NCBI GenBank assembly: GCA_964464695.1
Contig: CAYXKW010000001.1
Coordinates: 36,810 to 100,809 of the forward strand
Direction: 5' to 3'
DNA: 64,000 bases
DNA from: an uncultured Candidatus Saccharibacteria bacterium
GTDB taxonomy: Bacteria; Patescibacteriota; Minisyncoccia; Phycocordibacterales; UBA5272
Part shown: positions 96-14,222 of the stretch, piece after piece
How the letters are laid out: every line of letters starts with the position of its first letter
Position numbering within the stretch: the stretch's first letter is position 1
The notes under the pieces: model-generated
The model's database searches: none
What the model was told of the DNA's origin: nothing
The model's input: the letters and a program-made list of their open reading frames with translations, nothing else
Program-made: the position numbers and the translations under genes

Positions 96-782
96 TTAGA
101 GAAATTCAGGTGGCGTATCAGTTGCGAAAAAGTATGTTTCGTTAAAAAGCTTAAACATTAAGGTTTTGGCGTGAAGTGTTATACGAGGGGAATCATAGGT
201 GCTTCCATACGCCTTATCTCCAACGATAGGATTTCCAATGTGTGACATATGTGCTCTCAGTTGGTGTGTACGACCAGTTTTCGGAGTGAGTTCTACAAGG
301 CTTGTGTTTTTTTCACTATCGTATGAAATAACTTTTACTTCAGTTATTGCTTCACGCAATTCTCCTCGAGGGTTAACGGGATTAACTTGTTGTTTGTAAT
401 CCTTTTTGTTACGACCAAGTGGTGCATTGATTACAAAGGTACTTGGGGTAACATTTCCCTCAACTAATGCAATATATGTTTTTGTAAGTGTGTGGCCTCT
501 AAACTGCTCCTTAAGTTCGCTAAATGTTTTTTGATTTTTAGCAATAACCATAACACCTGAAGTATCGCGGTCTAGCTTATGAACGACACCGCCAAGCTGT
601 AGAGTTCGCTTGTCTTGAAGTGTTACAAGATTTTCAATAGTGAATATTTCGGGTATATGGTTTTGTAAAAAATCTAAGAGTGTTTCTTCTGTTGAATAGT
701 CAAAAGGATGAACAACAAGACCTGACGGCTTGTTGATAATGAGTATATTGGAGTCTTCGTAAATAATTATAATTGTGTTCAT
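96..782 (-). CDS. RluA-family pseudouridine synthase
   Basis: 228 aa. HKLDRDTSGV catalytic-Asp motif typical of RluA/RluC/RluD enzymes. ATG at 780-782. Confidence 0.85.
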   Translation of the reverse strand: MNTIIIIYEDSNILIINKPSGLVVHPFDYSTEETLLDFLQNHIPEIFTIENLVTLQDKRTLQLGGVVHKLDRDTSGVMVIAKNQKTFSELKEQFRGHTLTKTYIALVEGNVTPSTFVINAPLGRNKKDYKQQVNPVNPRGELREAITEVKVISYDSEKNTSLVELTPKTGRTHQLRAHMSHIGNPIVGDKAYGSTYDSPRITLHAKTLMFKLFNETYFFATDTPPEFL

Positions 783-783
783 A

Positions 784-1413
784 TTATATAAATTGAGCAG
801 CTTGCTTATATTTTCTCTCTAAGAATATAGTTTTATCTTTATATACTGACCGTAGTATGCATATGCTGTCTTTTTTTCCATACGTGAGAACATGCCAAGA
901 TTTGTTTTTTGGAGAGTAGATCCATCCACCCACACTATCATAATCCTTCCGAATTTCATTGGAGATCCACTCAATAAATTCATAACTTGCGGACGCAAGT
1001 CTAATGCGTACTTGTTTACGAGAGCTTTCTTTATGAGTATAAATATCAATATTGCCATCTCCGTCAATACATCCACGTAAAAAATGATAAAAATATTTTT
1101 TAGGAATAAGTAATTTACCGATTGTTTTAGATTTATTCTGAGTTAAGTTAATTGACAGTAAAAAATTATAAAAATGGGTATCTCCTATCTGGAGTACAAA
1201 ATATTTTTTATCAGGATTACTTCCGCTTCCTTTTCTTCCAATTTTCAAAGAAAGGGAGAAAAATGTTTTTAAGTCTTCTAGTAATTTAACATCTTTGGAT
1301 GTGATAACTATATGTCTAACATCTGACGATAAATTTCCATCAGTTGCAATAATCCCAATGAGATATGCTAAAGTGGGTGACCATTTTGTGGGGATATGTT
1401 TTTGTTGTTTCAT
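784..1413 (-). CDS. LAGLIDADG-family homing endonuclease, free-standing
   Basis: 209 aa with two LAGLIDADG-like motifs (LAYLIGIIATDGNL and FLRGCIDGDGNI). Its stop lies 1 nt from the rluA-like start. No flanking intron or intein context is visible. Confidence 0.8.
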   Translation of the reverse strand: MKQQKHIPTKWSPTLAYLIGIIATDGNLSSDVRHIVITSKDVKLLEDLKTFFSLSLKIGRKGSGSNPDKKYFVLQIGDTHFYNFLLSINLTQNKSKTIGKLLIPKKYFYHFLRGCIDGDGNIDIYTHKESSRKQVRIRLASASYEFIEWISNEIRKDYDSVGGWIYSPKNKSWHVLTYGKKDSICILRSVYKDKTIFLERKYKQAAQFI

Positions 1414-1553
1414 TTTAACTATTTGCTAAGGCATATAGCGTATACCAAATAGTATACTACCTTTTTATTTATTAAAAATGGTGATGTATGAAGATTGCAT
1501 AAAACACACTGGTATTTTTCCTTTTTTTGTAGTAGAATTCAATGGTTAATTAT

Positions 1554-1635
1554 GCCCAGGTGGTGAAATTGGTAGACACATCAGTCTTAGGAACTGATGC
1601 CGCAAGGCGTGAAGGTTCAAGTCCTTTCCTGGGCA
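1554..1635 (+). tRNA. tRNA-Leu (anticodon TAG)
   Basis: Manual fold: acceptor GCCCAGG/CCTGGGC; D arm GTGAAATTGGTAGACAC; anticodon stem TCAGT/ACTGA with loop CTTAGGA; long variable arm; T arm GAAGG-TTCAAGT-CCTTT; discriminator A. No encoded CCA. Confidence 0.85.
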
Positions 1636-1639
1636 CATC

Positions 1640-1861
1640 ATAATAAATACCCACTCTGTAATCAGTGTGGGTATTTATTATGATGTGAGTATTAGAAGCA
1701 AGTGACCAGCTGATTAGTAAATCACGTCGGGAGACGCTAACTTGCGTAAGGACTTGAATACGGCGATTAGTAAATCGTACCGTGAGGAGGTCGCGAAACT
1801 ACTTCTAGTGAAGCTGATTAGCAAATCACGCCGAGAGGCGCTAGGAGTTTCGTGACAAAAT
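1640..1861. mobile_element. tRNA-Leu-associated mini-element (about 220 bp) with hairpin, three GCTGATTAGTAAATCACG motifs and a conserved tail
   Basis: Perfect 14-bp-stem hairpin at 1641-1680. Motif copies at 1709-1737, 1763-1794 and 1813-1841. Tail GGAGTTTCGTGACAAAAT at 1844-1861. Bounded by a 19-bp direct repeat of the tRNA 3' end (1621-1639 = 1862-1880). No ORF inside. Confidence 0.55.
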
Positions 1862-1880
1862 GTCCTTTCCTGGGCACATC
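1862..1880 (+). repeat. Direct repeat: second copy of tRNA-Leu 3' end (gtcctttcctgggcacatc)
   Basis: Exact 19/19 match to 1621-1639 (T-stem 3' half, acceptor 3' strand, discriminator, 4 nt). att-site-like duplication. Confidence 0.85.
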
Positions 1881-1884
1881 TACA

Positions 1885-1917
1885 AAAAAAGTGAAGTCAT
1901 ACGACTTCACTTTTTTA
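1885..1917. terminator. Bidirectional rho-independent terminator
   Basis: aaaaaaa-GTGAAGTC-atac-GACTTCAC-tttttt: perfect 8-bp stem flanked by A-tract and T-tract. Sits between the tRNA element and the convergent minus-strand gene. Confidence 0.6.
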
Positions 1918-1993
1918 TTTTATTAAATATAAAAAATAAAAACCCCGAAACGATTGAACGTTTGACGGGGTTCGAGTGCGGCGTGTGCCGTAC

Positions 1994-3010
1994 TTATGTT
2001 GCTTGCTGAGAAGAAGATTTCTTCTTCAGTTGACCGACGGTGTTGTATCCACCCTTGGTTACTGCATAGACAGTCAGGACGTCACTTCCTTTCGGCAGGA
2101 CGCCAACCCAGGTACCGGAATTGAGGCCGGCAGTCTGCAGTTGCTTGATGGCCGAGGTATCCTCGAACACCAAGATCTGACGTGTCTCGTTGCGCAGCGT
2201 GACGTTGCGCTGGTCGAGGGCCTCCGGCATGTCATGCGACGACTCCTTTTGCTTCGGAGTTGATGCCGACACTGGAGTTGAGTTCACCTTCTTCACCTTC
2301 GAGTTTTTCTTCCCGACGATGAAGGCTTCAATAGGTTGTCCTTCACCATTTGTCATGATGACGTACTTGCCATGTGGCAAGCACAACCACTCCGCCTCGG
2401 TGGTAACAGGGATGCCAAAGAAATGTTTTCCTTCGGCGCTCCAAGCCTCCACCGTTTTGCGAGCAAGAACACTTTCCATGAACAAGGTCCGACGCAAACG
2501 AGTTTCGTCGTTTGCTTTCTCAATTTCGGTTTGTTGCATCATTGCAGCTTCGCGAGCTGCCTGGGACCGCTTGCGAAGGATTTCTCCTTCTTCTGGCGAA
2601 TACCAATAGTCCAACTCGAGGCCGGCTGCGACCGCGATCTTGATGTCGAGCAGGACTTCGAGGGAAGATGCACCGGCAGTAATGAACTTGCCCGCAAACT
2701 TGACCGTAACCGAGTGAGCAAAGTCGTTCACCCGCATGACGGAGAAGACAACGTCATTGTCCTGGATGGTGATGACGAATTCGTCATCAAACACGATAAG
2801 ATCAGCAAACTGACCTGGCTTGGTGCCAGCAGTCTGGTAACTCCACGCAAGTTCACCCCACTTCAGAACCTTCGCAGGCCGGAAGCCGTTGGTGCCATCA
2901 CGATTGCCCGTGTACTTGCCGCTGCGGAACATTTCGATAACAATTCCGTCGACAGCCTTCACTTCGCAGACTTCACCAGCGGGAACGTTGCGATGATTTG
3001 TGGTTTCCAT
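1994..3010 (-). CDS. Hypothetical protein, GC-rich (about 55%), likely horizontally acquired
   Basis: 338-aa ORF spanning the whole GC-rich block 1976-3055. No recognisable motif. Composition contrasts sharply with about 35% GC flanks. Long ORFs on the opposite strand are shadows expected in GC-rich DNA. Confidence 0.55.
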   Translation of the reverse strand: METTNHRNVPAGEVCEVKAVDGIVIEMFRSGKYTGNRDGTNGFRPAKVLKWGELAWSYQTAGTKPGQFADLIVFDDEFVITIQDNDVVFSVMRVNDFAHSVTVKFAGKFITAGASSLEVLLDIKIAVAAGLELDYWYSPEEGEILRKRSQAAREAAMMQQTEIEKANDETRLRRTLFMESVLARKTVEAWSAEGKHFFGIPVTTEAEWLCLPHGKYVIMTNGEGQPIEAFIVGKKNSKVKKVNSTPVSASTPKQKESSHDMPEALDQRNVTLRNETRQILVFEDTSAIKQLQTAGLNSGTWVGVLPKGSDVLTVYAVTKGGYNTVGQLKKKSSSQQAT

Positions 3011-3265
3011 GGGGAACCTTTCCTTTCTTGGCTAAAAAGCCTTTGGTTTCAATGAACTAACATAGGAAGCAGTATGTAAACTGAATTCCATATATATAGT
3101 ATACATTAAATATTGATTTTGTCAAGTAATTTGTCTATTAAAAATCTTTGGTAACATTGTAGTTTAATGGTTTTTTAGTGTAGGTGTGTGATTGATACAG
3201 GAATTAGAAAGGGCGCCCGTAGGGCGCCCTTTCTAATTCCTCACTATCTTTACAGACTACATTTT

Positions 3266-3686: not shown

Positions 3687-5204
3687 TTAGATTCTAAGTT
3701 TTTCTACTTTAATTGCTTCTACGATGTCTCCAGGAATAACTTCTAGTTTACTTTCTACCATAAGTCCGCATTCCGTTCCTTCCATAACGGTAGAGGTTTT
3801 AATTTTTTGTGACTGGAGTTCGATAATTTTTCCTTTCCCAAAAACCATTCCACGTCTAATGAGACGAACAACTGCTCCATTCTCAATCTTACCTGTTTCT
3901 ACACGACCTCCGATAACATGCTTATCTTTTTGTGAACTAAATGTTCGAAGTACTTTGAGTGTTCCTAAAATTGTTTCTTTCTCTTCAAATGGTAGACGGT
4001 CTGTTACAACAGTTTCGAACCATTCAGAAAGTTTGTAGATAATATCAAAAATCTGTGGAGTAATTTTAAATCTATCTGCTTGGTCACGTGCCTTTGCTTC
4101 CATTTTGACAGTGAATCCGAGAATAACTGTTTTTTCATCAGATGATGCAAGCATGATGTCTCCTTCTGAGATGTTTCCAATTCCTTCTGCGATTATCTTT
4201 ATCTTTATATCAAGGGTCTCAAATTTTTTGATTTCACTCTTCACAGCATCAAGCGTTCCAAGAGAATCTGCCTTAATAACTACAGGGATAACTACTTTTG
4301 CGTTTCGGTAGATACGTGGATCAAGAACTGATTTTATTTTTGCTTGGCGAGTTTCTTGTGCTAACTTTTCCATTTCTTTTTTATCAGAGGAAGAAATAAA
4401 AATCGCGCCAGACGCTGGGATTTCGTCAAATCCTGTAACCATGATTGGTTGTCCCGCGTGAGGGTTCTTGATTGGTTTTCCAATAAAGTTCTCAATAATT
4501 CTAATAGGGGAAAGTGCAGTACCGGCAAGAATAGATCCAGCTGAACTTAAAGTTCCATCCTTAAGGACGAGTGTTGCAGAGATGCCACGCTTTGCATCAA
4601 CGAAGCTTTCGAGCACGTATCCAGTTGCTTCAGTGTCTAGATTTGCTGTGAGTTCGTTCATTTCTACCATAAGTAGTAATGTCTCAAGCAAAAAATCAAT
4701 TCCAGTACCTACTTTTGCAGAAATTTCTACACATGGAATGTCTCCTCCGTAACCTTCAATGTAAATTGCATTCTCAACAAGTGAGTTTTTTGTTTTCTGG
4801 ACGTCTGCTCCTGGCTTATCTATTTTATTAATAGCAACAAGATATGGAAGTTTATGAGCTTCAATTGTTTTCCATGCTTCTAGAGTTTGCGGCTTCACAC
4901 CGTCTTCTGCTGAGACAATAAGAATTGCGATATCCGCAATCTCAACACCACGTTCACGCATTCCTTGGAATGCAGCGTGACCTGGAGTGTCTAGGAATGT
5001 GATCGGCTTAATCTTGCCGTCTGCTTGCTTATGTTCTACCTCATACGCTGAGATACGCTGAGTGATACCACCTGCTTCGCCATCGACGATATTGGATTTT
5101 CTAATGAAATCAAGGAGGGATGACTTTCCATGGTCAACGTGACCAAGCACAGCAATGATGGGCTGACGAGTTACAGTTCCTTGTGTTGTTTGGTTTTTCG
5201 GCAT
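3687..5204 (-). CDS. infB: Translation initiation factor IF-2 (short form)
   Basis: G-domain AVLGHVDHGKSSLLD, DTPGHAAF and NKIDK motifs begin about 20 aa after the ATG at 5204. The ORF-track start at 5237 is a TTG inside the promoter-like TTGACA and was not used. Confidence 0.9.
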   Translation of the reverse strand: MPKNQTTQGTVTRQPIIAVLGHVDHGKSSLLDFIRKSNIVDGEAGGITQRISAYEVEHKQADGKIKPITFLDTPGHAAFQGMRERGVEIADIAILIVSAEDGVKPQTLEAWKTIEAHKLPYLVAINKIDKPGADVQKTKNSLVENAIYIEGYGGDIPCVEISAKVGTGIDFLLETLLLMVEMNELTANLDTEATGYVLESFVDAKRGISATLVLKDGTLSSAGSILAGTALSPIRIIENFIGKPIKNPHAGQPIMVTGFDEIPASGAIFISSSDKKEMEKLAQETRQAKIKSVLDPRIYRNAKVVIPVVIKADSLGTLDAVKSEIKKFETLDIKIKIIAEGIGNISEGDIMLASSDEKTVILGFTVKMEAKARDQADRFKITPQIFDIIYKLSEWFETVVTDRLPFEEKETILGTLKVLRTFSSQKDKHVIGGRVETGKIENGAVVRLIRRGMVFGKGKIIELQSQKIKTSTVMEGTECGLMVESKLEVIPGDIVEAIKVEKLRI

Positions 5205-5217
5205 AATGATAAAGGCA

Positions 5218-12751: not shown

Positions 12752-12756
12752 CATGA

Positions 12757-12796
12757 AAATCTAAATGCCACAGTTACTGCTGTGGCATTTAGATTT
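12757..12796 (+). terminator. Perfect 17-bp-stem hairpin immediately 3' of tRNA-Tyr
   Basis: aaatctaaatgccacag-ttactg-ctgtggcatttagattt followed by ttta. Likely the tRNA terminator or part of the mini-element. Confidence 0.6.
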
Positions 12797-12990
12797 TTAC
12801 TGTGCATTGTGGAGATGGTTTTGAACTGCTGATTAGTAAATCACGCCGTGAGGCGATGGCCGCAGCTTGCATACTCCAAGAGTCACTCTGGTGAGCGAAG
12901 AGCGGGTGTAGGTTTCGAGCTTAGCAAAGCGAGAGACAAATCCAGTCCGGCTTTGGGGGTGTGACGAGGAGTTTTGTGACCAAATCCAGT
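12797..12990. mobile_element. tRNA-Tyr-associated mini-element related to the tRNA-Leu one
   Basis: GCTGATTAGTAAATCACGCCGTGAGGCG copy at 12828-12855. GC-rich spacer. Partial tRNA-Tyr 3'-end duplicates at 12936-12951 (acaaatccagtccggc, 14/15 match) and 12981-12990. Tail GGAGTTTTGTGACCAAAT at 12968-12985 is near-identical to the tRNA-Leu element tail. Confidence 0.5.
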
Positions 12991-13103
12991 TGCAAAGCTT
13001 GCATCCAAGTCCAAGACATAACCTTGGTAGGTTAGATGTGAATTTGGCAATTCAGAACTGCTAGTTCGCCTGCGCACAAGAAAAATACCCGTTAGGGTAT
13101 TTT

Positions 13104-14222
13104 TTAATGATGGTGATGACTGTCTCCCGTAATTTCTTTTCCGTGAAGCATGTAAGAAGCAATGAGTGTCGTAATTGGTACAGCAAGAACAAGTCCGATA
13201 CTACCTATTAATATACGAACTACTTCCGTAGCAAAGATTTCACTATTTAATATAAAGAGGGCACCAACTGTTGAGCTTTGTATAAGTAAAAGAAGTGGAA
13301 GGGATGCACCAACATAGGCAATTGCAAGTGTGTTAACTAAAGCACCGATGTGTTCTCGTCCAATACGTATCCCGCGCGTGTATACTTCTTTACGACTTAA
13401 ATGTTTTCCTGCTCTTAAAAGTTCTTCTATTACAATTGCTTGACCGATTGCTATATCATAAAGAACTCCAAGTAATCCAATCATGATTCCTCCAAATAAA
13501 AGTCCAACCATGTCAATTGCTCCACGGGTATTAAAGGTAAGATATGTTGCTTCATCTGAACTATATCCACTTAGATTTCCCGCATATACAACGTAGTATG
13601 CAGCTAGGCCTGTAAGGATAACGGTAATAATCATGCCTATTACAGCAGCTGTTGTTGTTCGGTTAAAGCCATGGGTGATATATGACCCAACTATGATGAT
13701 TAATGAGGCTACCCCAGTGCTTACTAGGATTGCATTATGTCCGCCGTATAAACCTGGAATGAGAAGATAGAAAATAAGAAAAAAACTCCCAATCAAACTA
13801 GCTAGACCTCGCACACCCTGAATGCCACCAAAAATAAATATAAGAGCAACAAAAGCAATAGTTAACCATAGAAGAATATCTAACCTGTATGGATCGGCTA
13901 CTGACCAGTAACTAGTATTCTCTAACTGGTTACTCTGATGTCTAGCATAGAAGATTTCTCCTTGCTTGAGTTGAATATAATCATTTTTAAAAGTAACTGT
14001 TTTTCCTTGATCAGGTCCACTAATTACTTCTATTTGTATTGTTTGAACTTGTCCAATTGTGTCAGTTCCTGCAACTGTCGTTGTTCCTTGCTCAATAATT
14101 TTAATTACCTTAGCTTTTTCAAAAGTCTCAGTATCTACTACGAGTGTAGCTTCTTGAGCAAACAACAAAGAAGGTATAAGAGTAATGCTAAGCAGTGAAA
14201 GTAAAAGTAGTTTCTTGAACAT
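13104..14222 (-). CDS. YibE/F-family integral membrane protein
   Basis: 372 aa. Signal/TM, then multiple TM helices with the Gly-rich YibE/F pattern. Natural His-rich C-terminus (DSHHHH). Confidence 0.7.
   Translation of the reverse strand: MFKKLLLLSLLSITLIPSLLFAQEATLVVDTETFEKAKVIKIIEQGTTTVAGTDTIGQVQTIQIEVISGPDQGKTVTFKNDYIQLKQGEIFYARHQSNQLENTSYWSVADPYRLDILLWLTIAFVALIFIFGGIQGVRGLASLIGSFFLIFYLLIPGLYGGHNAILVSTGVASLIIIVGSYITHGFNRTTTAAVIGMIITVILTGLAAYYVVYAGNLSGYSSDEATYLTFNTRGAIDMVGLLFGGIMIGLLGVLYDIAIGQAIVIEELLRAGKHLSRKEVYTRGIRIGREHIGALVNTLAIAYVGASLPLLLLIQSSTVGALFILNSEIFATEVVRILIGSIGLVLAVPITTLIASYMLHGKEITGDSHHHH

Follow-up and report, generated by a model that had tools for sequence, protein, structure and literature searches.

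What lies behind the tRNA-Leu gene near the start of this stretch of DNA, and how it came to be there, is the question raised by the locus. The stretch (64,000 nt of an uncultured Candidatus Saccharibacteria bacterium, contig CAYXKW010000001.1; hereafter the window) carries a tRNA-Leu(TAG) whose 3′ end is repeated downstream, and the original prediction, made from the letters alone, described the enclosed segment as a mini-element. It is one unit of a family of cassettes of ∼200-250 bp (about 240), devoid of open reading frames (ORFs), rich in hairpins and located 3′ of tRNA genes in Patescibacteria, and the window holds a second copy behind tRNA-Tyr. The explanation preferred here, to which slightly less than an even chance is given, is that positions 1618-1861 form one unit of a non-autonomous family that would enter the tRNA T-loop by site-specific recombination, with an enzyme provided in trans and a single-strand structure acting in cis. 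The family is apparently undescribed, since a literature search, which was not exhaustive, found no description of such cassettes; it brought up the group I introns in anticodon loops of Patescibacteria tRNAs (PMC13011429) and work of a general kind on integrative elements.

A structured unit between two copies of a tRNA end

The repeated sequence GTCCTTTCCTGGGCACATC occurs exactly twice in the window, and still only twice when up to three mismatches are allowed, for 0.01 occurrences expected by chance. Copy A of the cassette repeat is the 3′ part of tRNA-Leu itself, from T-loop C56 (1618) onward, and the downstream copy A′ is read as an older tRNA 3′ end that has been displaced. No fewer than three independent assemblies carry the duplicate: a Logan contig (L002; L numbers denote contigs and loci compared with the window) reproduces the arrangement with 100% identity and the NCBI metagenome assembly GCA_020049755.1 (L066) with 99.5%, and this agreement excludes an assembly artefact. 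The parts of the locus are as follows.

1554-1635/6, + strand: complete tRNA-Leu(TAG) (ARAGORN; Rfam RF00005, 58.6 bits)
1621-1639, + strand: copy A, 19-nt direct repeat from T-loop G59 to 4 nt past the discriminator, exact match
1634-1687, + strand: H1, AT-rich hairpin with 25-nt arms (1634-1658/1663-1687), 96% complementary
1698-1703 with 1740-1745, + strand: S1 stem, GCAAGT with ACTTGC, showing covariation; its loop holds copy 1 of the M module
1709-1726 and 1725-1736, + strand: M module copy 1, GCTGATTAGTAAATCACG and CGTC-GGGA-GACG, a two-hairpin structure
1748-1758, + strand: anti-T AAGGACTTGAA, 11 nt, 100% complement of tRNA positions 54-64 (TTCAAGTCCTT, 1616-1626)
1764-1787, + strand: M-like module copy 2, CGATT-AGTA-AATCG then CC-GTGA-GG, 63% identical to copy 1
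1790-1856, + strand: P2 closing stem, inverted repeat of GTCGCGAAACTACT (1790-1803) with AGGAGTTTCGTGAC (1843-1856), showing covariation
1813-1840, + strand: M module copy 3, GCTGATTAGCAAATCACG and CGCC-GAGA-GGCG, enclosed by P2
1862-1880, + strand: copy A′, 19-nt direct repeat, exact match, preceded by the linker AAAAT (1857-1861)
1885-1916, + strand: H2, intrinsic terminator after A′, the sole + strand terminator call in 1400-2000

Several elements of this list had been seen at the outset. The enclosed 222 nt indeed contain no ORF of at least 50 aa; the three motif copies stand at 1708-1739, 1761-1792 (63% identity to the first) and 1812-1843 (88%), and the conserved tail GGAGTTTCGTGACAAAAT at 1844-1861. 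A hairpin with a perfect 14-bp stem had also been proposed; the hairpin exists, but as H1 it is longer and less perfect and starts inside the tRNA 3′ end. H1 is made of an A-tract, a GC core (CCCACTCTG/CAGTGTGGG) and a T-tract, and its foot, CACATC/GATGTG, extends into the tRNA. Anti-T at 1748-1758, the P2 stem, the fixed start of the homology in the T-loop and the compound copy behind tRNA-Tyr had escaped notice, and the degenerate consensus proposed for the tail suggests that the tail of the Tyr locus had been seen. One further assembly, GCA_020054605.1 (L067), equals the window except in the part of P2 and M copy 3 (equivalent to window 1798-1830, gaaaCcacttcGAGCAACgctgattagTaaatcacgt), after which the contig ends; this strain variant reflects either an exchange of modules among copies of the cassette or a chimeric join where the module is repeated.

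The stems are conserved as structures. For P2, the two arms of 12 units were aligned after being joined by an added GAAA linker: 88% of the cells are paired and 8 of the 14 pairs are compensatory, with both sides changed, a score reached by none of 500 shuffles, while slid registers give 36-51% of paired cells. Pair 4 is G.U in 11 of the 12 units and pair 6 is G.U, A-U or G-C. These G.U pairs would be C.A mismatches on the opposite strand, which assigns the structure to the tRNA-sense strand. In S1 (10 units), 98.9% of the cells are paired and seven of nine pairs are compensatory. With compensatory helices and strand-specific wobble pairs, the units have the marks of a conserved structured single-strand element, either RNA or single-stranded DNA (ssDNA). 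Folding energies (z about −5.9) are as extreme on one strand as on the other and do not discriminate.

The M module consists of two adjacent hairpins, UGAUU-AGYA-AAUCA and CGYC-GNGA-GRCG, with an AGYA loop and a GNRA loop, respectively. Stem variants are CGAUU/AAUCG and GAAUU/AAUUC, and M-like copy 2 of the window, read by eye, displays the compensatory change from U-A to C-G. The module is found in the loop of S1 (window copy 1, L010, L016, L024 and L005), in that of P2 (window copy 3, L006, L009, L022 and L028) or directly after anti-T in the units called type X. The module is thus shuffled among positions, and the likening of these repeats to an array of integrase arm-type sites has to be abandoned for two hairpins with co-varying stems and conserved loops that occupy differing apical loops. 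Type X units possess another hairpin, NNNN-AGCA-NNNN, for which four co-varying stems are known (GCCT/AGGC, GCAC/GTGC, GGCA/TGCC and GCTT/AAGC). Inside P2, many units contain a 2-bp mini-hairpin with a GAA or AAA loop (GCGAAGC, ACGAAGT, GCAAAGC). Mini-hairpins of the GCGAAGC type are notably stable in ssDNA; the GNRA loops and G.U pairs are more RNA-like.

A cassette family at Patescibacteria tRNA genes

A scan of genomes (one per species) with the 18-mer GCTGATTAGTAAATCACG yielded 14 loci, 10 of which are true and 4 due to chance. The true loci all show a cassette-type context and come from metagenome-assembled genomes (MAGs) labelled Paceibacterota, Taylorbacteria, Saccharibacteria or ‘bacterium’, these labels being those deposited, some of them possibly loose; the chance loci lie in coding-looking DNA of unrelated phyla. 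In JGI metagenomes, only 3 of 15 loci are true units. The 18-mer is however an optional module, and the cassette architecture is far commoner, as a reading of the sequence downstream of every tRNA in the fetched loci shows: ∼15 of 28 sampled tRNA genes on other Patescibacteria contigs (including L069, L075 and L077) carry units. The host tRNAs are Leu(TAG, TAA, GAG), Tyr, Val, Met (two genes), Arg(TCT, CCT), His and Lys, and units also occur at orphan fragments made of a T-arm plus acceptor without an intact gene upstream (L022/L008 and L015/L007). Copies are found only behind tRNAs or tRNA-like 3′ fragments. A miniature inverted-repeat transposable element does not fit, since the repeat varies in length (19-22 nt), is anchored to tRNA landmarks and is not found at many kinds of sites. 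With Rfam 15 at the gathering threshold, the window and 20 loci match only tRNA, plus LOOT in L035, and permissive Rfam scans return only the noise of generic, miRNA-like hairpins. The LOOT RNA (L035 581-707, + strand, 92 bits) adjoins a superinfection-immunity-like gene on a related Paceibacterota contig.

The order of parts in a unit is tRNA, copy A (C56 to about N75), H1, often an anti-acceptor, S1, G-N-N, anti-T, TAG or TAC, GG, P2, YGTGAC, A′ and the next hairpin. The first part of each unit is its own tRNA 3′ copy, from T-loop C56 to 1-4 nt past the discriminator; since every unit starts with this copy and H1, the tRNA gene stays intact. The unit ends in YGTGAC, or in GAGAGG in type X, joined directly to the older tRNA 3′ copy. 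The junctions read GTGAC|C-R-A or GAGAGG|C-A-A in the units, and the left limit of homology is fixed at C56. The repeat measures 19-22 nt and ends at tRNA landmarks, which rules out a target-site duplication of fixed length. Hairpins equivalent to H1 (A-tract, GC core, T-tract) are present in every unit without conservation of sequence. S1 is a 9-bp hairpin with a CTGC loop or with the M module in its place, P2 is a closing stem with variable apical modules, and the anti-acceptor, which is complementary to the acceptor 3′ strand, prolongs the H1 palindrome, when present, by 6-17 nt. H1 has the shape of a terminator but is not called by the terminator scan; because the scan does not recognize hairpins of this type, termination at H1 is deduced from the sequence. 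No terminator is called between tRNA-Leu and H2, and the promoter scan of the Leu locus finds nothing, even for the tRNA itself.

Anti-T is a complement of the T-loop and T-stem 3′ strand of the unit's own tRNA. In 8 of 20 tRNAs examined by script, a perfect 11/11 complement of the tRNA's own positions 54-64 stands at most 320 nt downstream, and three more have 9-10/11; in the non-cognate control, 11/11 complements appear in only 2 of 368 comparisons. Anti-T always ends in GAA, the complement of T54-T55-C56. Copy A′ lacks the two T residues because it is preceded by GTGAC or GAGAGG, and in several units its T-loop part is lost or interrupted although anti-T remains perfect (L010, L016 Met, L006 Arg). 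The anti-acceptor continues the H1 palindrome past the discriminator (CACATC in the window; CCA in L010 and in L016 Met2) and, as the palindrome runs through this post-discriminator sequence, it matches the gene or the precursor and not the mature tRNA. S1 is placed exactly where positions 65 and 66 meet, the point at which the D and anticodon domain leaves the stack formed by the acceptor and T-stem in tRNA. What is conserved thus amounts to a long fold-back in which the 3′ third of the tRNA pairs with sequence downstream of it and S1 forms a side branch. At some orphans (L015/L007) the complement fits the downstream copy better, and anti-T may pair with A′. A tRNA on the minus strand, or a tRNA-like gene using the downstream copy as acceptor, was also considered and rejected: the anti-acceptor persists where the downstream acceptor has decayed, and the GAA of anti-T answers to the TTC of the real T-loop, which the downstream copy does not have.

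Units of one genome may share a framework. On contig L075, the units at Leu-TAA, Leu-TAG and Lys have a near-identical S1 (GTAYGAYAC), each with its own cognate complements, and both Leu units share the flanks of H1 too. This pattern requires that gene conversion be combined with selection on the parts specific to each tRNA, or that these parts be copied from the target.

The second copy in the window, a compound one (12753-13078), lies behind tRNA-Tyr(GTA). The 18-mer GCTGATTAGTAAATCACG recurs downstream of this tRNA at 12828-12845, and the tail, as GGAGTTTYGTGACMAAAT with two mismatches, at 12968-12985. The array is composed as follows.

12668-12751/2, + strand: tRNA-Tyr(GTA), the only other tRNA of the window (ARAGORN; Rfam)
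12756-12797, + strand: H1, AAAATCTAAATGCCACAG / CTGTGGCATTTAGATTTT, read off the sequence and aligned with the Leu unit
12815-12951, + strand: type X unit, in the order anti-T, M module, variable hairpin, AGCA hairpin, GAGAGA, Tyr 3′ copy
12815-12825, + strand: anti-T of type X, 9/11 complement of the Tyr T-arm
12828-12855, + strand: M module of type X, followed by ATGGCCGCA and the variable hairpin
12919-12930, + strand: type X hairpin GCTT-AGCA-AAGC, preceded by GTAGGTTTCGAG and followed by GAGAGA
12937-12951, + strand: partial tRNA-Tyr 3′ copy CAAATCCAGTCCGGC, after GAGAGA
12952-13078, + strand: older remnants of the array
12968-12980, + strand: truncated 3′ arm of type Y (Leu-type), GGAGTTTTGTGAC
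12981-12989, + strand: T-loop piece CAAATCCAG, after the truncated type Y arm
about 13055-13078, + strand: distal piece gaactgctagttcgcctgcgcaca
13082-13105: terminator after the array

The distal piece also ends arrays in L037 (Tyr; ∼5175-5205, − strand) and in L075 (downstream of Leu-TAA). These three distal ends, at different tRNAs, keep (T)TCGAACTTGCTRGTTCGCYTGGNCACA, which contains a 6-bp hairpin CGAACT-TGCT-AGTTCG followed by the local tRNA acceptor 3′ strand. Four contigs of one species are all identical over the Tyr array, without strain polymorphism.

Such arrays show that units are stacked head to tail, the intact copy being next to the tRNA and those farther away progressively decayed. 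One case is the tRNA-Tyr of L037, from a species with a YibE_F protein 85% identical to the window's: behind a perfect unit come a second tRNA-end copy, also perfect and accompanied by a hairpin, then a second unit (one mismatch in anti-T), a third copy that has decayed, and scraps. The same gradient is seen at L006 Leu-GAG, L016 Met, L022 and L075 Leu-TAA. Unit types vary at one tRNA, tRNA-Tyr being followed by X plus partial Y in the window, by tandem Y in L037 and by X in L012. Occupancy, too, differs at one allele, in rearranged contexts: an identical tRNA-Leu(TAG) is followed by units in L010 and L075 but stands bare in L001 and L077, with the RluA ORF beginning 1 nt after it. An isogenic empty site was sought through homologues of YibE_F, RbfA, RluA, the LAGLIDADG ORF and the GC-rich ORF described below, without a clean pair of empty and filled sites, since synteny is rearranged. 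Larger composites exist as well. In L015 (700-2745, ∼2 kb), tRNA-His and its unit are followed by a 476-aa ORF, encoding a secreted repeat protein with a peptidoglycan-binding domain, and by a type X unit that terminates in a copy of the His 3′ end, so that tRNA-His 3′ ends bound the whole composite; L007 has this type X cassette in another gene context.

Insertion, transcript or fold-back

How such units arise can be approached from their boundaries. A direct repeat of the tRNA 3′ end flanks the insert and the tRNA gene is reconstituted, as with elements that use tRNA genes as sites; attL- and attR-like ends are kept without recombination or transfer genes and with tandem accretion, as in cis-mobilizable elements (CIMEs). 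Stacking, decay, the C56 boundary and turnover are what site-specific integration into the T-loop with tandem accretion would produce. In the preferred explanation, the tRNA-3′-end copy of the unit, acting as attP, would recombine site-specifically with the T-loop of the gene, with a crossover at or after position 55/56. Insertion would replace the 3′ end and terminator of the gene and push the old ones downstream, as integrative islands and CIMEs do, so that the newest element would be next to the gene and the displaced 3′ ends free to decay. The recombinase would be supplied in trans and encoded outside the window. The sense-strand hairpins and target-complementary segments would then constitute a cis-acting single-strand structure, either a folded ssDNA recombination site or a co-transcribed RNA, and not a set of double-strand arm sites bound by proteins. 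Under this insertion, the empty site would read GGTTCAAGTCCTTTCCTGGGCACATCTACAAAAAAAGTG and the junction of a circle or tandem GTGACAAAATGTCCTTTCCTGGGCACATCATAATAAATACCC. The initial idea of site-specific integration into a tRNA gene is supported as regards the form of the duplicate, which fits insertion at the 3′ end. Of the two options that it offered, the non-autonomous miniature element fits better, given its recurrence behind many tRNAs, its tandem arrays and its differing types, and the footprint is unlikely.

The search for an enzyme covered the window ORFs of at least 110 aa, whose first 160 residues were read by eye and only a few of which were scanned against Pfam. This reading recognizes among them no integrase, transposase, TnpB, reverse transcriptase or HUH protein, in agreement with the initial statement that no integrase is present; the proteins read as ClpB, LeuRS, UvrA/C, RNR, DnaE, RNase J and the like. 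The Leu unit is flanked by a LAGLIDADG ORF and by a GC-rich ORF of no recognizable family, and Pfam on these two neighbours gives only LAGLIDADG. In the Pfam lists precomputed for about a dozen related loci, none of the enzymes sought is present. Elements with an IS110 bridge RNA or an IS200/605 ω RNA are not indicated, as there is no recombinase or TnpB ORF in the window or beside the units and no Rfam match. Searches for relatives were equally negative. At the sensitivity used, no cassette copies occur in IMG/VR, INPHARED phages or PLSDB plasmids: IMG/VR scans with the 18-mer and with a gapped pattern of the closing stem give nothing or only chance matches in GC-rich coding DNA, and blastn against INPHARED and PLSDB matches only the tRNA-Leu. 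Nor was an autonomous relative of the integrative and conjugative or integrative and mobilizable kind found in the genome, metagenome, viral, phage and plasmid searches.

Several of these points weigh against insertion by a recombinase. Neither the enzyme nor an excised circle nor an isogenic pair of empty and filled sites was found, so that mobility is read from comparative patterns, and IMG/VR, INPHARED phages and PLSDB yielded no free or autonomous relative. A classical integrase model leaves unexplained that each unit has a perfect complement of its own T-loop, as well as the near-identical S1 and H1 frameworks at different tRNAs of L075, which require easy retargeting or gene conversion combined with selection. 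Finally, a functional RNA would account just as well for the pronounced conservation of structure, for the GNRA loops and for the G.U pairs. Such a host-functional RNA, the main rival, possible but clearly less probable, would be a 3′ external spacer or trailer of the tRNA, or a small RNA, co-transcribed by read-through of H1. Its anti-T and anti-acceptor would pair with the 3′ third of the tRNA or with the downstream copy and control maturation, decay or folding, the tRNA-end duplicates being structural partners or by-products of local duplication instead of integration scars. The sense-strand structure with its P2 wobble pairs, GNRA tetraloops, AGYA loops and covariation speaks for it, as do the lack of a called terminator between tRNA-Leu and H2, the near-identical modules across MAGs with different lineage labels and the orphan type X unit, which is ∼90% conserved with compensatory changes between L015 and L007 in unrelated flanks. 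Selection on anti-T, which remains perfect where the downstream copy has decayed in its acceptor part, is better explained in this way. On the other hand, the distribution is sporadic (about half of the tRNAs, with unit types that vary at the same tRNA and no unit in L001 and L077), the decaying tandem arrays resemble accretion and not a maintained gene, and H1 reads like an efficient intrinsic terminator, so that the body may be poorly transcribed. Moreover, the anti-acceptor complements the gene trailer (CACATC) and not the mature CCA end, the 2-bp GAA mini-hairpins of the GCGAAGC type are more typical of ssDNA, and there is no match to an Rfam family.

The same mini-hairpins inside P2 are arguments for a spread as ssDNA without any recombinase, through natural transformation or on the lagging-strand template, followed by homologous or homology-facilitated insertion, with the tRNA as left arm and the terminal tRNA-end copy as right arm. 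The fold-back (copy A, H1, anti-acceptor, S1 and anti-T) would mask the first copy or mimic a double-stranded target, in the manner of the folded att sites of CTXφ or of integron attC. This route accords with the lack of a recombinase in the window or beside the units, with the strand-specific structure and with the H1-centred palindrome, whose extension of 6-17 nt into the tRNA end, trailer or CCA included, matches DNA or precursor over mature tRNA; natural transformation has been demonstrated in cultured Saccharibacteria. It is nevertheless rather improbable, being purely inferential: a right arm of 19-22 nt is short for RecA, and neither the sharp C56 boundary nor the origin of new tRNA-specific versions is explained by it alone. 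A broader conception, doubtful though less so, makes the cassettes a tRNA-targeting selfish element or a tRNA-locus RNA of undescribed kind, programmed by nucleic-acid complementarity; the 3′ third of the target tRNA is present in each unit both as copy and as complement. As ssDNA, the fold-back could mimic or mask the target and spread without integrase, for example through constitutive DNA uptake by Patescibacteria; as RNA, it could guide a recombinase. The framework shared by units at different tRNAs of one genome implies that retargeting is easy.

Two explanations remain with still less weight. The footprint of a larger prophage or genomic island at tRNA-Leu, deleted or imprecisely excised with scraps of attL and attR left behind, would account for the direct repeat of the tRNA 3′ end, and larger composite islands do exist at such sites (L015 tRNA-His). 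It is an unlikely origin, because repeated independent deletions would not yield a complete paired architecture: the compact arrangement is found at at least 15 tRNAs, with both P2 strands paired across the supposed point of deletion, and no phage or plasmid relative was found. That both ends and the stems between them are kept intact from genome to genome, with the duplicate following directly on the closing stem, makes this half of the original alternative unlikely. An intron-like or ribozyme element of group I type in the T-loop, or an artefact of assembly or duplication, is very improbable. The 241-bp unit is bounded by repeats, which makes an intron with ambiguous borders formally possible, but the first copy already gives a complete tRNA, and with E relaxed to 10 there is still no Intron_gpI or ribozyme match. 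The tRNA introns known in Patescibacteria, moreover, interrupt the anticodon loop, the copies downstream have usually decayed, and three assemblies agree.

Surroundings of the Leu cassette and relation to known systems

On the 5′ side of tRNA-Leu lies a free-standing LAGLIDADG homing-endonuclease-like ORF (209 aa, 784-1413, − strand; Pfam LAGLIDADG_3, E 1.7e-10), which ends 1 nt before an RluA-like ORF (96-782). This ORF, tRNA-Leu and the cassette occur together in L066 and L067, the other assemblies with contigs reaching far enough; the ORF is missing in L001, a strain otherwise ∼98% identical to the window. Window positions 750-1930 (RluA N-terminus, LAGLIDADG ORF, tRNA-Leu and cassette) correspond there to a replacement of 163 bp (L001 3808-3970) that contains a tRNA-Leu(TAG) allele different from that of the window, in opposite orientation and abutting the RluA start codon. 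The arrangement is of the L001 type in L077 and of the window type in L075; the tRNA-Leu/RluA junction thus exists in two inverted forms in the lineage.

On the 3′ side, the segment 1971-3045 contains a GC-rich ORF of 338 aa (1994-3010, − strand; 53% GC against about 37%) with no match in Pfam, PHROGs or PADLOC. Its homologues are 22 proteins, all unnamed, encoded downstream of IF2-RbfA in L075 and L077 within a variable stretch of unknown genes. In L001, exactly this slot, bordered by the upstream flank and the terminator hairpin seen in the window, is taken by an unrelated GC-rich ORF of 327 aa, and the slot looks like a hotspot of gene swapping. A weak likeness of 3018-3034 to the repeat is judged due to chance, this stretch being the purine-rich ribosome-binding site of this ORF on the other strand. 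A perfect 20-bp palindrome at 3199-3241 (AGGAATTAGAAAGGGCGCCC / GGGCGCCCTTTCTAATTCCT), between the upstream region of the GC-rich ORF and rbfA, is kept in L001 and is probably a bidirectional terminator. Same-sample Logan contigs stop within both tRNA T-arms (window 1599/1627 and 12736); the assembly graph therefore branches there, from strain variants or from cassette repeats.

The cassettes matter in several respects. Patescibacteria genomes are among the smallest in bacteria, yet about half of the sampled tRNA loci carry one to three cassettes, and either selection or an efficient spread is at work. If mobile, they would be, to our knowledge, the smallest integrative elements at tRNA sites, with a design of target copy and complement that classical integrase systems do not need and that points to a folded single-strand or guide-based mechanism with an enzyme yet to be identified. 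If they are RNAs, they would constitute a new and abundant class of tRNA-linked structured RNAs in a phylum whose RNA biology is barely explored. In practice, they break short-read assemblies inside tRNA T-arms and create pseudo-att sites, which may mislead callers of genomic islands and prophages.

Comparison with other structured elements brings out what is particular to them. Small ORF-less structured elements are known at tRNA genes of the same phylum, where group I introns sit in the tRNA anticodon loop and are self-splicing (PMC13011429); in contrast, the cassette lies after an intact tRNA and has no Intron_gpI signature. With IS110 bridge RNAs and the ω RNA or reRNA of IS200/605 elements, the cassettes share a structured non-coding part with target-matching sequence, but they have no adjacent recombinase or TnpB and no Rfam match, their complementarity is continuous over 11-23 nt and they are flanked by a repeat of 19-22 bp. 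The 3′ external transcribed spacer of E. coli leuZ (3′ETS-leuZ), GOLLD and ROOL are likewise non-coding, adjoin tRNA genes and are possibly co-transcribed with them; they have no relation in sequence or in Rfam to the cassettes, which carry a tRNA 3′ copy with its complement and form tandem decaying arrays. Repetitive extragenic palindromes and the bacterial interspersed mosaic elements or REPINs that they compose resemble the cassettes in being short, ORF-less, hairpin-forming, strand-specific and placed after genes, and are mobilized in trans. The cassettes differ in being strictly located at tRNA 3′ ends, with target-derived and target-complementary segments, and no RAYT-type gene is seen. 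Integron attC sites and the CTXφ attP(+) hairpin also favour structure over sequence, are strand-specific and form an imperfect palindrome whose stem reproduces the target duplex. The R′/R′′ core motifs are however lacking in the cassettes, whose target is the tRNA T-loop and not attI or dif; no link with IntI or Xer is shown, and the cassettes possess the extra modules S1, P2 and M.

The closest parallel is with islands at tRNA sites and CIMEs. Islands of the T-loop sublocation class at tRNA and tmRNA genes, and integrase-less derivatives, have reportedly been described by Williams in 2002 and in the streptococcal literature on CIMEs. As in these systems, the cassettes have a repeat of the tRNA 3′ end, identity from the T-loop to past the end of the gene and a newly supplied 3′ end, and, like CIMEs, they have no recombination genes and accrete in tandem at one site. 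We know of no autonomous element related to them. Unlike islands and CIMEs, they measure only ∼240 bp, are without cargo, occupy about half of the sampled tRNAs instead of one site, and combine co-varying sense-strand hairpins with a cognate T-arm complement. What appeared as a single possible integration scar is thus a recurrent family of tRNA-tailored structured cassettes in Patescibacteria, CIME-like in kind.

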